Below, piece by piece: positions 1 to 64,000 of a stretch of DNA of 64,000 nt. The notes beneath the pieces were generated by a model. It did not search any database, was not told the DNA's origin, and saw only the letters and a list, made by a program, of their open reading frames with translations. Location: contig OZ024741.1 in the NCBI GenBank assembly GCA_964016885.1, forward strand, positions 152,768,001 through 152,832,000, given 5' to 3'. Within the stretch, counting starts at the first letter, position 1. Every line of letters begins with the position of its first letter. A program made the position numbers and the translations under genes. This DNA comes from Eledone cirrhosa. Lineage: Eukaryota.

Positions 1-3000
1 ATTTAATTTGGTTGTAATTCTTTTATGCTTACTGCCTCTGTAATTTGCCTAAACATTGCATCTTTTCTGTGTGTGGATTCTATTTTTATTTCTATGTTCT
101 CTAATTTACCCTTGTGTTCTATCTTAGCATGTTGGTAGAGTACAGATGATTCTTTATTATCTTGAAGGTCTCGCCAGTGTTCATTTATCCGTTCCACTAT
201 ACTACGAGCTGTCTCACCTATGTACACTATATTTTTGTTTCTACATTGTCCTTCAGTACATCTTATGCTATACACTACATTTCTAGTTTTACAGTTAATA
301 TGGGGGCTTATTTTACAGGTTATACATTTCTTATCTATACATGAGGGTCTTTGGAACGGGTATGTCTTGCTAATGAGTGTTTTTATGGAGGTACCTGGTC
401 TTTCTACTATCTTAATATTGAGTTTATGTTTATTTAGAGGCCCTTCTAAATTTGTAGGCTAGTTCGCCTCTAGGGGTTGTATTGATGAACATTACACTCT
501 GGTATTTATTGCTATCATACCATGAGTTTATTCTATTGGCCTTGTTCCTAGTTCTTTCTATTCTATTCCAAAATTTGCTCCTATACAAGGGGCAGGTCCC
601 ATTTATGTCATTATTTACCATTTTTTCCCATTTGGTTCTGGCTCCTCTATACACTCTGATTCTATCTCTCTGATTGTAGCCAGAGAACTGCATACGGTGG
701 ATGAAGTGTTGTATGTGTCTCTCTAGTTCTTCGGGGTTGCACATGCGGGACACATTTCTCATCACCCGTACCAAATCCGCAATCAGTATGTTGATTTTGG
801 TATGGTCCGAAATGGCCGAGTTTCGGTGGATCAGATGTTTGGAAGTCATGGGTTTGGCATAATGGGAATGGAGGATTTGTTTTTGGTTGTTAATGGTATC
901 TAACCAGAGCTATGTGTCTAGTACAGGTAATCGATGGTTGGGGTGTCTACTTGGGTAGTCTATAGTAACTCTAATGCTCTGGTGGATGGAGTTTGCTATT
1001 TGCTGGATGCTTTCCATTGTGTTTTTCTCTAGTTCCTGACTGTTCTCTAGTGGGGGTGTCTTAACTACGATGTTTATATCATCTACGTAGCGGGAGAACA
1101 TTATCAGGGTTAAGCTGTCTTCTAATTGTTCTTTAAGTTTAAGTTTAAGTCTACTGTCCCACCATACCATGAATAAGTTAGCTATGTCGCCTGCAATGCT
1201 AACACCAATGGCTGCTCCTTCCTCTTGGGCATATGTTTTTCCATTAAATTTGAACATATGTTCCTTAAGGGTTAATTTTATGCTGGCCCCTACCGCATGT
1301 GCAATCATTTTCTTCAGTTCATCGTGGTTTTCGGGTGTCCGTATGGCTCTGGTCCACCCGTTCCATCTATCTGTGTGGGTTTTCTTGGCCATATAGGTAA
1401 TGGTAGGTGGTCTGCCTCTTGCTGGTCTTGTAGGGCACAGGTTGCTAAGGTCATAAGTGTCTAGGTAACTATTACTATGGGTAAGCTTAAGTAGAAGTCC
1501 CAGCTCACTGGTATCAATCCCACGGAACTCAACCTTGCTCTCGCTGATCATTTCTACGCATTTCTCCACAGCAAAATCCACGTCAATAGATGGATACAGG
1601 GACACAACATCCATACTGCCTATTATGCAGTTTGTTAGGTCCCCAGATCGGTTACTCACGCCGATTCTGCTGAGGAGGTCCTCCGTGCTGTCACATACAT
1701 CTGGGGACATCTCAATGATGGGTCGTATGATCAGGGAGAGGAAGTAGGACAGTCTGTAGTTACTAGCAATGTTAGCTCCACAGACTGGCCGTGTTGGTGG
1801 TCCCGCGACAGGGTCACAGCCCGTTTTATGGTCTTTTCGAAGCCCATACAACGCCGGCACGTCATTGTTCCAGGCCTGGAAGTTGTTGGCAGTCCTTTTG
1901 TTGGGCTGCATTATATTCGTCCACATCACCATATGGGCATTGAGGGCTTTTTCTCTATCCTCATGCTCCTGTGGTGTTACCTCTCTTGTGTTAGTGATGT
2001 GGGGTTGCATTGCCTGGATGTAGTTTGGCAGGCTGTCAACCGGCATTCTGCCAGACTTGTCTGTTGGAAAGCATGCTATCTCTCCATTACGTGAGCGCTG
2101 CATGAGCTTACGCAAGCCATTTGCAGATTTTTCTCCCAGTTGCTGGGCCTCTATTCTATTATGCTTCTTGCTATACTGTTCTATAATATTTATAAGTTCG
2201 GATTTAGCTATACTAAATTGTGCTTCTGTTTGTTCATCGACCTGCGACGGCAACTGTGTGCGTTTGTTAAATGGTAAAGTCGTGGCGTGGACTCGTCGCA
2301 GGTCGAATGATTTATCGGAGGGATTATAAAACGGAGAGTTCCCGGCTGCTGCTTTATGTGTACTAGTGCTATTGTTATTGTTAGTTGTGTTGCCTCTATT
2401 TCTATTTCTATTTCCACCTACAGCCTCATGGTTGTTTCTATGTCTCTCATAATTACTCCTGTCTCTTTCCACTGGCTCAATGTTGTTATCTACCCTATTT
2501 TGTGTGTCTGTGTGTTCGTCTTGGTTATTCTCTTTGTCCTTAGTCTCCCATCTCCTTTTCCTTTTAATCTTATTACTTTCCCTTATTTCTCTGATTTCTG
2601 TGCTACTGTCATTACTTGTTTTCTGTGTCTGTGTGTTTGTTAAGATTGTGGTGGTGGTGAGAGGCATTGAATGCGTGTGTGTTGTTGTTGTTGATGTATG
2701 CTGTTGTTGATGTGTGTTGTTGTTGTCTCCGTGTGTGTTATCGTTGTTGTGTGTGTTGTTATTGTTGTTTGTGTCTGCGTGTCTGTTGTTGTTGTTTCTG
2801 GGTATGTTGCTATTGTTGTTGTTGTTGATGTGTGTGTTGTTGTTATTGTTGTTTGTGTCTGTGTTTCTGTTGTTGTTGGGATGTGTGTTGTATATGTGTG
2901 TGCGTATATTTTTGCTTTTGTTTTTGATGCTCCAGCGTAGTTTTGTAAATGATTTTTCTATTTCTGACAGACAACTAATCATATTTACCTTCTTGAATGT

Positions 3001-3701
3001 CGCAAATTTCGGCGGCAAATATAACACAGACATTTCATCATTATCTATTTTTGTGTTCCCATAAATGTTGGTGTTTTTGTTATTGAACTCTTCTGATAAT
3101 GAGGTGTCGGCCATGTTGATACCGTCAATTTTGTCGGGATATCTATTGGTATACTCTATAGTATCCTGATTTAGCTTTGCCTGTTTAAGCCACTTTAGTT
3201 TCCTGTTAAAGTGCTTATCACATTCTTGAGTAATGTACTGTTCTTCGGGGCGTATAAGGCTTATAAATATTAGTTTCTCTGTTGGTGTGGTGATTCTAGC
3301 TATTTCTTGTATTAGGTTACGCTTTTGTTTTTCTTGATGACTTAATTCTCTATAGATCTTCTTTTTTATGTTCAGAATTAAAGTTCGTTTTAGCCTATCT
3401 GCTTGTTTTTTGGTTGGTGAGTTGTAATCTTCTAACGTCGGTATTGATGGTGTTGGTGTAGATTCTAGAAGAGGCACAGAGCTTTATGAAGGATAGTTGT
3501 CGAGATGTTATGGTTTTTCGTAGACAACAGAACATGGTGGTTTCCAGTATCTTGTTAGCCTGGCTAAGGCTTACGATATTTCGTTTCTGAATTTGTTTAG
3601 CAAGATTCTTTATCTGAAATCGTGTGTTGAAACCGATATTGTTATACTTTGGGAGGGTCATGTTGCCAATAAGAAACACACGCACCAGTTGCTTTCACTT
3701 T
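1..3701 (-). mobile_element. Penelope-like element, family A (Naiad-like), left arm of an inverted pair; runs off the window start
   Basis: ORFs 3395-3685, 910-3477, 430-849 and 3-275 on the minus strand give N-terminus, RT (SMDVVSLYPSI, GAAIGVSIAG, RYVDD), thumb and GIY-YIG (VYIGETARS) in order. The 5' end (about 3638-3701) matches the pLTR end at 6722-6785. The Naiad assignment is inferred from RT motif style. Confidence 0.93.
3..3661 (-). pseudogene. Disrupted PLE polyprotein (RT + GIY-YIG endonuclease)
   Basis: Probable ATG at 3661 (MTLPKY). Frameshift near 3478 (RQLSFIKLC / LLESTPTPSI), TAG at 910-912, frameshift near 435. N/T/H-rich (AAC)n-encoded linker at about 2690-2900. Confidence 0.88.
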
Positions 3702-62464: not shown

Positions 62465-64000
62465 TTCAATCCACTCCGATATGCAGACTTATATGCCCTT
62501 CTAAATCAGACATAGGGAAAATTAGCAAACATATACTTGACAGAGTAATAACTCAAGTGAAAAAGAAAATTGAAATTAAATTATGGGGCAACACTAGCGA
62601 AGCAATTCGCTGGTTTAATAATGTTAAGAATAAGAATAAATCTAAGTTTATACAATTTGACATAGACGAATACTACACTTCCATCTCACCAAGCACTTTA
62701 CGTAAGGCCCTATCGTTTGCTAAGGCCAATTCCGACCTAACGGAGGACGAAATTAATATTATTCTCGAGGCTAGAAAAACCATTATTAAGTTCGATAACT
62801 GCTACTGGGAACGTAAGGACAGACCCACAAATTTCGATATTACCATGGGTTCCAACGACTCGGCGGAGGTCACGGATCTCGTGGGAATTTACATAGCCCA
62901 CATATTACATAGTAAATTTAGTAATCTACAGGGGGGGGGGGATATATAGAGATGACGGGCTCTTATTAGTTAATAACTTGAATAACCAAAATCTTGAAAG
63001 GCTACGGAAAAATATTAGAAAATCTTTTAGTGAACTGGGTCTAAAAATAACATACGAATACAATCTTAAAGTAGTAAACTTTCTGGACGTAACTCTTAAT
63101 TTAAATACCGGACAGATACGACCCTTCCACAAGGTAAATGAGAACCTTACGTATATTAACTTTAACTCTAACCACCCACTCTCCATGATCAAATCAGTTC
63201 CCCGGAGTATTTCTCTTAGAATCTCTCGCCTATCGTCTAACTCTGATATTTTTAGTGAACACGCTGAATACTACAATAATGCATTAAGGAATGCCGACCA
63301 CCGGGATACAATAGAATACATCGATAGGAATTTCCATAACACACATAGCTCTACACGAAATCAAGGAATACGTAACCGGGGGACTAAAACACAAGCACAC
63401 ACACACAGTACTACCAGACATACTAATAATAGAAGATCACCACCAAATAAATCACGTTGTAGAAAGTATATCTGATACAATCCTATTTTTAATGCCTCGA
63501 TTAGTACAAAACTATCTCTTTCATTCTTTAAATTAATCAACAAACATTTCCCTAGTTCCCATAAATACAGCAAAATTCTGAACTCTAAAACTATTAGACT
63601 ATCATACTCCACGGCACCAAACCTTGAAGCATACATAAAAAAACTTAACTTAAGGCAATTAAACAACTCTACAAAACAAAACATTTTAGTAACAGATGGG
63701 CAGAACGCAATATCTGCCTCCCAACAACTAAATGGGAGACGGGTATTACACAACCCACCTGTACCGCTATCACAACCTTTCCATGGTGTACCCGCTACCC
63801 ACAACAAAGAATGTAACTGCCATCTACCTGAAAGATGTCCATTGAAGAATGAATGCCTAAAGTCCAACATTGTTTACCAATGCACGGTTGAATCGAACGA
63901 CCAGAAATGGTACTATATCGGATCTACCACCACATCGTTTAAATCTCGCTGGTACCGTCATCGATTCTCAATCAAGCATCCGAATCACCGTTTTGTGACC
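62465..64000 (+). pseudogene. 5'-truncated PLE RT + GIY-YIG (YRDDGL type, possibly Nematis-like); runs off the window
   Basis: CRLICPSKSDIGKISK, FIQFDIDEYYTSI, FDITMGSNDSAEVTDLVG, IYRDDGL (frameshift in poly-G at 62931), TGA at 63473, CNC..CPL..CLKSNIVY..YYIGST. Confidence 0.9.

Follow-up and report, generated by a model that had tools for sequence, protein, structure and literature searches.

Inverted pseudo-long terminal repeats (pLTRs), a one-sided tail, TA targeting and two start sites of the reverse transcriptase (RT) are already in print for Penelope-like elements (PLEs). The closest known structures are those of endonuclease-bearing PLEs with inverted pLTRs, such as Penelope of D. virilis, Pen2 of A. 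vaga and Naiad (PMC8557442, PMC3846280, PMC2377424). The inverted form was the most frequent one in D. virilis, where the Penelope promoter is located within the element, in the pLTR (PMC2377424), and the rotifer insertions combined an inverted pLTR and a single tail with 9-10 bp target duplications (PMC3846280). Inverted copies with a tail at one end and a TA bias were described together with the definition of the Hydra clade (PMC8557442), the hammerhead form was reported in PMC4209133, and fresh Chlamys insertions had a median length of 128 bp (PMC9977147). Endonuclease resolution or self-priming, the latter modelled for the rotifer, were the published explanations. We analyzed a stretch of 64,000 nt from Eledone cirrhosa (GCA_964016885.1, contig OZ024741.1, positions 152,768,001-152,832,000, forward strand), hereafter the window, which contains eight inserts, each consisting of two oppositely oriented pieces of a single PLE family with their 3' ends outward. 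In such inserts the two arms nearly always stop at different points of the element, the pLTR end (site 1) in one arm and the "tail" end (site 2) in its partner. Unlike in the elements listed above, this near-obligate rule was counted here in two clades; the tails are 45-171 nt long instead of 30-40 nt, and many inserts are only 60-250 nt in size.

The only in vitro PLE system, PAc (anole Poseidon), cuts and extends both strands of an AT-rich target, and its RT starts coincide with the two tail ends (PMC11167929). A predicted dimer and a need for RNA located 3' of the starts are further points of likeness, whereas 2-6 nt of TA microhomology at the starts distinguish the elements studied here. 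That paper neither ties the two sites to the ends of one inverted insertion nor mentions paired stems, and the steps after initiation are left unvalidated.

The inserts of E. cirrhosa work like twin priming, although not in its L1 form. The original account of L1 twin priming is reportedly that of Ostertag and Kazazian in 2001. Twin or dual priming of L1 likewise joins, internally, two oppositely primed cDNAs made at two strands, but the second priming occurs at a variable internal site and leaves fragments with an internal deletion (PMC2837659). Here both starts are fixed and lie 45-171 nt apart, the arms mostly overlap (only 16 of 84 inserts have non-overlapping arms), and about half or more of the insertions have this form.

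Eight of the families studied here resemble Hydra clade PLEs in the RW(R) and DKT motifs, the CxCX5C linker, the lack of CCHH, the (TA)n target and a putative hammerhead (PMC8557442). Their units, however, are 3.5-3.9 kb long, while those described are generally below 3 kb, and they are very abundant (32,270 exact site-2 ends in family D alone), while the clade had been known from few families outside cnidarians. The near-obligate two-site pairing and a duplicated stem behind the sites appear to be new, the inverted structure itself being known; neither the pairing rule nor the paired stems were found stated in the literature searched, outside which fell Arkhipova 2006 and the supplement of PMC11167929. 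PLEs are the sister group of telomerase, and the formation of their tandem and inverted insertions and their microsatellite targeting were named an open problem (PMC8557442). The pairing rule joins the two in vitro start sites to both ends of one genomic insertion, the stems offer a few bases to mutate in an in vitro assay, and together they make the integration step of PLEs testable. The genome contains tens of thousands of young ends and intact open reading frames (ORFs); therefore, both statistics and proteins are at hand.

Two fixed 3' ends, their pairing and the stems behind them

The sample comprised the window, 100 kb on each side of it and six 200-kb blocks at round coordinates of six other contigs, 1.464 Mb in total. 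End clusters were built from sequences abutting (TA)n with no family label used, and they occurred in pairs, one cluster lying a fixed 45-171 nt upstream of the other. A BLAST census with 17 natural copies as references, not anchored on TA, revealed bimodal 3' ends in a ratio of about 1:1 for 16 families, denoted by letters; the 17th (F) yielded three matches from one element. Family T was outside the census, and its facing pairs were two between clusters and one same-cluster.

Automatic pairing identified 91 inverted inserts, among them 86 with site 1 plus site 2, three 1+1 and two 2+2. Both 2+2 cases represent inner tandem tails of family O elements, the outer ends of which are mixed. After exclusion of six pairs spanning two or more inner TA tracts (four mixed, two same-site), 82 of 85 pairs were mixed against 50% expected (p=5e-21), one of the mixed pairs being a local duplicate. 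The proportion was 70/71 in the ORF-verified families and 59/61 outside the block containing the window. An independent test relied on coordinates: exact end patterns for family I matched 100 site-2 and 82 site-1 ends in C1:0-47 Mb, and head-to-head neighbours were mixed in 23 of 25 cases within 5 kb and in 14 of 14 within 1 kb. True same-site inserts are rare, and it is the sequence of the element itself that sets the pairing rule. Genome-wide, exact ends with TA behind them are numerous: besides site 2 of family D, there were 13,985 for site 2 and 11,645 for site 1 of family I, and 12,516 for site 1 of family A.

In the sample, 99 TA-abutting ends were left unpaired (47 site-1 and 52 site-2). 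Three of them were rescued automatically and about 15 by eye, 22 had the 5' end directly at the TA tract, and the remainder ran into unique DNA, a different family or the end of a short reference, which gives a two-ended share of at least 45%, or about 55% after rescue. The first 30 site-2 ends of family D in genome order, an unbiased set, corresponded to 29 inserts: 19 mixed, one probably mixed, one 2+2, six one-armed and two unresolved, so that 19-21 of 27 resolved inserts were two-ended. For family A, 30 loci were fetched by similarity and 29 oriented; 13 were mixed, eight had no partner of their own family, eight were unresolved and none was 2+2 (13 of 21 resolved). The two-ended share of inserts is about half to three quarters. 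At two family A loci (L006 and L007), the 5' end is joined to an inverted arm of another hammerhead-bearing family, possibly a cross-family two-ended insert or a nested insertion.

Both sites in families H, I, O, S and B are followed at 6-12 nt by a 4-bp stem, RCTC...GAGY, with a loop of 5-56 nt, the sequence after site 2 being read from tandem copies. For families D and J the stem was predicted before the search and then found, with 394 and 272 matches, respectively, versus 0 for a reversed-pattern control. In nine Hydra-type families, one copy each, it was present at 16 of 18 sites compared to 2% of 18,387 background positions; the exceptions, J site 1 and O site 1, are copy variants, since other copies have the stem. 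The stem pairs show A-U/G-C and U-A/A-U swaps, the stem of C site 2 has a compensated GCAC/GTGC form, and that of E site 2 is bulged. The family C pattern matched mostly chance flanks, and tandem copies were present at three of its eight loci. Folding gave a stem probability of at least 0.43 at 11 of 16 sites. Nearly every start opens with 2-6 nt of TA/AT.

Inserts of the window

Self-comparison and reading of the window bore out all eight inverted PLE inserts that the earlier note had proposed. Its statement that their outer ends abut (TA)n holds for 12 of the 14 visible ends and for both ends outside the window, but the flanks to the right of 24386 and to the left of 30108 are a mixed TA/CA repeat. 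Insert 1 begins about 484 nt upstream of the window and is 7.27 kb long in total, and insert 8 ends at 65037. It was noted beforehand that the off-window ends should be the opposite site, and the neighbouring DNA agreed (site 2 in both inserts). Site 1 was paired with site 2 in six inserts (1, 2, 3, 5, 7 and 8), while 24297-24386 and 42016-43061 have a non-canonical right end. Three two-ended inserts were absent from the earlier note. The features are as follows.

484 nt off-window, minus strand: outer end of insert 1 left arm, site 2 (tail end) at (TA)n
1-3575, minus strand: insert 1 left arm, near-full-length Nematis-like PLE of family A with predicted RT and GIY-YIG
3576-3700, minus strand: insert 1 partial tandem, last 65 nt of the upstream pLTR and a 60-nt tail; 5' junction of the left arm
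3703-6786, plus strand: insert 1 right arm, family A copy truncated at its 5' end, reaching (TA)n with site 1
6933-6987, minus strand: insert 2 left arm, family C (Hydra), site 1, hammerhead core inside
6988-7092, plus strand: insert 2 right arm, site 2, blunt junction
11608-11905, minus strand: insert 3 left arm, old family A copy, site 1
11906-12758, plus strand: insert 3 right arm, site 2
24297-24355, minus strand: insert 4 left arm, family D (Hydra), site 1
24356-24385, plus strand: insert 4 right arm, non-canonical end some 20 nt short of site 1, flank other than pure TA
27050-29316, plus strand: one-armed counter-example, family A copy ending at site 2
30108-30142, minus strand: insert 5 left arm, tail only, site 2, mixed TA/CA flank
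30143-30168, plus strand: insert 5 right arm, site 1
32977-33235, no strand assigned: additional two-ended insert, family H (Hydra), left tail-only site 2 with a GA-repeat flank, right site 1
34813-40221, plus strand: counter-example lacking an inverted arm, PLE of the Neptune type, pLTRs direct, flanked on either side by (TA)n
42016-42547, minus strand: insert 6 left arm, family B (non-autonomous 535-nt unit), site 1
42548-43061, plus strand: insert 6 right arm, end at +59 (usual site 2 of the family, +90)
49317-49397, minus strand: insert 7 left arm, family A, site 1
49398-49446, plus strand: insert 7 right arm, site 2, confined to the tail and not overlapping the left arm, 1-nt microhomology
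56637-56740, no strand assigned: additional two-ended insert, family D, left site 1, right tail-only site 2
56750-56996, no strand assigned: additional two-ended insert, family H, left site 1, right tail-only site 2, 4-nt microhomology
61668-62484, minus strand: insert 8 left arm, family E (Hydra), site 1
62485-64000 and on to 65037, plus strand: insert 8 right arm, predicted RT and GIY-YIG, site 2 (146-nt tail) at (TA)n

The two arms of insert 1 differ by 16 mismatches and two gaps. Inserts 6931, 24297 and 61672 are assigned to the Hydra clade, inserts 1, 3, 5 and 7 to one Nematis-like family, and 42016 is non-autonomous. At least six pieces are one-armed or in direct tandem: 8128-8249, ~27050-29316, 30229-30296, ~31520-32452, 34813-40221 and 46169-46290.

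Arms, junctions and possible mode of insertion

Microhomology, mostly of 1-4 nt, was found at 40 of 84 resolved junctions, inserted bases at 37 (some of them local repeats, by eye), and seven junctions were blunt; eight rows had been removed from the set, including insert 8 (its 35-nt overlap is a self-reference artefact), plus junctions with gaps of more than 30 nt. At least 2 nt of microhomology was present in 26 of the 47 insertion-free junctions versus 17% in a shifted-position null (p=4e-9), an enrichment that may be inflated because mutated junctions were classed as insertions. Joining by microhomology, as suggested in the earlier note, is partly supported. The site-1 arm reached further 5' in 37 of the 84 inserts, the site-2 arm in nine, and in 38 the two were within 10 nt. 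Site-2 arms were tail-only in 16 inserts, nine of them starting within 8 nt of site 1. Most inserts are short (48 of 82 below 300 nt). Arms of one insert share subfamily variants; in 17 family D inserts (nine were skipped by the pattern) they differed at 0.76 positions on average compared to 3.0 between inserts (p=5e-5). In the same family, 38 of 42 site-1 arms stop at -44 to -62 and 26 of 42 site-2 arms at -44 to -61, and this common stop near -60 may represent a transcription start or an RT block. In families D, I, C, N and R, the arms of short inserts share a 5' stopping point that is characteristic of the family and frequently lies 1-5 nt ahead of the hammerhead core; transcription may start there. 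We do not claim hammerhead-cleaved RNA as the template: a few arms of family D begin close to the predicted cut (-15 to -17), but 84 arm ends form no clear peak. Joining at natural RNA palindromes is not the rule either, with overlaps of 7-27 nt in single cases and most junctions at 4 nt or less.

Priming from both ends of a break, proposed in the earlier note, is supported because the arms often do not nest and either of them can be longer. We consider it probable that this is programmed twin priming, in which the element's own endonuclease cuts both strands, one RNA is primed at sites 1 and 2, and the cDNAs are end-joined. The GIY-YIG endonuclease would cut both strands in (TA)n, and each stem would dock one RT of a protein dimer. 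The two 3' ends would then prime on the same RNA via a few TA bases, each at a different one of the two sites. The RT started at site 2 could stall at the site-1 primer, leaving a tail-only arm, or displace the site-1 product; in many cases both RTs would copy as far as a shared 5' end of the RNA, located within the pLTR (near -60 in family D), and run off there, and host end-joining would fuse the two cDNA ends. If one priming failed, a one-armed insert would result. The GIY-YIG cut, the dimer, the single RNA and the host pathway are the parts we infer. If correct, two-ended priming would be built into this retrotransposon rather than accidental. That twin priming is the core integration route of PLEs in general, with the two stems of the RNA docking the RTs of the dimer and the tail serving as a spacer between the docking sites, is a more tentative proposal.

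Several observations weigh against programmed twin priming. Same-site inserts do occur (one 1+1 in family H, one 2+2 in family D at L265/L266, and two of 25 in family I), and in the family-agnostic table 10 of 167 pairs were same-cluster, five of them from a non-PLE repeat. One-armed inserts make up a quarter to half of all; twin priming as the default route, suggested in the earlier note, is partly supported by the two-ended shares given above. The arms overlap in RNA sequence in 68 of 84 inserts, which needs strand displacement, tandem RNA or two RNAs. In PMC11167929 the strands did not differ in where synthesis starts, and the starts showed no homology. Five families served to define the stem post hoc, relaxed forms were needed for C site 2 and E site 2, and folding gave a probability of 0.12 or less at five of 16 sites. 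No stem was found in family A, which obeys the pairing rule, and family N, with no tandem copy among six loci, lay outside the stem test. The families were chosen for having two end clusters, and the structures were read from the assembly alone.

An asymmetric dimer with two RNAs, each primed at a different one of the two sites, would produce overlapping arms without displacement (those of insert 1 share about 3 kb). Such dual priming, a concept described for L1 (PMC2837659), would also fit the rare apparent cross-family joins (a6 and a7) and a 2+2 insert with differing arms, but it predicts neither the site-2 arms stopping at site 1 (9/84) nor the 37:9 bias. The arms share variants, although RNAs from one locus would too, and we regard this possibility as unlikely. 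Alternatively, a single site-2 cDNA folded back on itself, or a self-priming antisense RNA, could copy back to site 1, where the endonuclease cuts, and the palindrome would later lose parts. Palindromes are deletion-prone, and near-symmetric hairpins (38/84) and near-identical arms fit this scheme. Self-priming (PMC3846280) and endonuclease resolution (PMC8557442) are published suggestions. However, the site-1 arm would have to lie inside the site-2 arm, which is violated in 37 of 84 inserts, by more than 1 kb in a13 and B4:152025; unpaired site-1 ends are as frequent as site-2 ends (47 versus 52), both sites precede the same stem, and RT starts at both sites in vitro. Such a foldback is therefore improbable.

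On the reading of the earlier note, breaks in self-complementary (TA)n, taken here as spontaneous, would be patched at both ends with PLE RNA. In human cells, TA repeats are prone to breakage and undergo repair by microhomology-mediated end joining (PMC13645644), the junctions resemble end-joining, and the summed TA flanks are long (median 54.5 nt versus a length-weighted background of 20 nt), which could reflect fragility, a preference for long tracts or added TA. TA-centred inverted flanks were found at nine of 597 testable tracts in the sample, two of the nine being merely adjacent PLE arms. On the contrary, ends outside (TA)n, curated by eye, were paired about as often as those at (TA)n (19/37 versus 159/258, Fisher p=0.28, with a small number of the former). 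All six TA-bounded short interspersed nuclear elements (SINEs) and the long interspersed nuclear element (LINE) of the window are single-oriented at TA. Neither self-complementary (TA)n as the cause nor patching of fragile tracts is supported, because non-TA ends pair alike and TA-bounded SINEs are single-oriented; the intact endonucleases, a TA total below 24 nt at 15 of 86 inserts and the occurrence in a rotifer of this inverted form with a single tail, there flanked by target duplications of 9-10 bp (PMC3846280), also make this a remote explanation. An assembly or chimeric-read foldback artefact could be suspected from the assembly gaps and palindromes of the window. Indirect evidence makes it barely credible: the fixed one-sided tail in 16 families, independent substitutions and deletions in the arms, the shortness of most inserts, non-overlapping arms and tens of thousands of exact ends genome-wide. 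Among nine sequencing runs listed, three contain most of the words of the region surrounding insert 7, a share that is uninformative about the junctions. The inserts are real and biological.

PLE families and other repeats

ORFs tied nine families (A, C, D, E, H, I, J, R and S) to PLE proteins. Pfam detected GIY-YIG in families A and E (inserts 1 and 8), with RVT_1 weak in A; RT with a C-terminal GIY-YIG was read over full ORFs in D, J, H and I and in pieces in S, R and C. The ORFs of D, J and H are unbroken (748, 821 and 738 aa, respectively), and intact GIY-YIG endonucleases are encoded by the families. No ORF was linked to families B, K, M, N, O, P and Q, of which K, M, N, O, P and Q are presumably PLEs. 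Translations of D, H, I, J and S contained, by eye, all Hydra motifs (RWK-type, DKT, the CxCX5C linker and no CCHH), and those of C, E and R contained them over only part of the ORF; on these motifs, all eight families are assigned to the Hydra clade. The Nematis clade is defined by a CX2-5CxxC linker with a short spacer together with CCHH; judged by eye, the layout of family A matches Nematis rather than Neptune rows of the alignment, and the family is designated Nematis-like. Between RT3 and RT4 its ORF (window 2667-2878 and from 3673 on) carries a long insertion, and an Asn/Thr-rich low-complexity N-terminal stretch resembles the N-rich inserts of rotifer Penelopes (PMC3846280).

Tandem and partial-tandem copies, direct or inverted, form pLTRs, with tandem units of 3.5 and 3.9 kb. 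Loci L195-L199 and L205 are head-to-tail arrays of full-length Hydra elements with unbroken ORFs and periods of 3.53 and 3.89 kb. A predicted hammerhead core pattern occurs in nine of the 17 references, in family D only as a variant by eye; Rfam gave no hammerhead among the 150 of 341 matches listed, which were swamped by repeat matches. The optional one-end tail is present (45-171 nt). Family B is a non-autonomous hammerhead-like unit of 535 nt in which no ORF was found, with 1760 first-look candidates; at L207-L236 it is also present in ~2.6-kb units with TA-rich inner sequence. In the Neptune-type PLE at 34813-40221, the direct pLTRs are 449 nt long (98.9%), a frame of 456 aa lies upstream of one of 766 aa with putative RT and endonuclease, and the 5' end of the element meets (TA)n directly.

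Repeat ends abutting TA at 61541-61657, 6824-6904 and 7148-7250 (end clusters 12 and 20 and one hammerhead-bearing family) are probably more PLE families. Short inverted flank duplications at TA tracts were observed at 29352-29411 versus 29492-29560, 18674-18712 versus 18741-18780 and 8267-8350 versus 8502-8583, two of the three adjoining one-armed PLE ends. The single-oriented LINE at 14759-18160 (to ~18550) carries an intact 1133-aa ORF with predicted APE, RT and a PHD-like finger, and its (GAT)n end lies at a TA tract. An abundant TA-bounded non-coding repeat of 420-450 nt (26420-26970 in the window), in which no hammerhead or ORF was seen, has short inverted ends and forms tandem arrays; the same type recurs every ~460 nt in the block C3:200.075-200.081 Mb.

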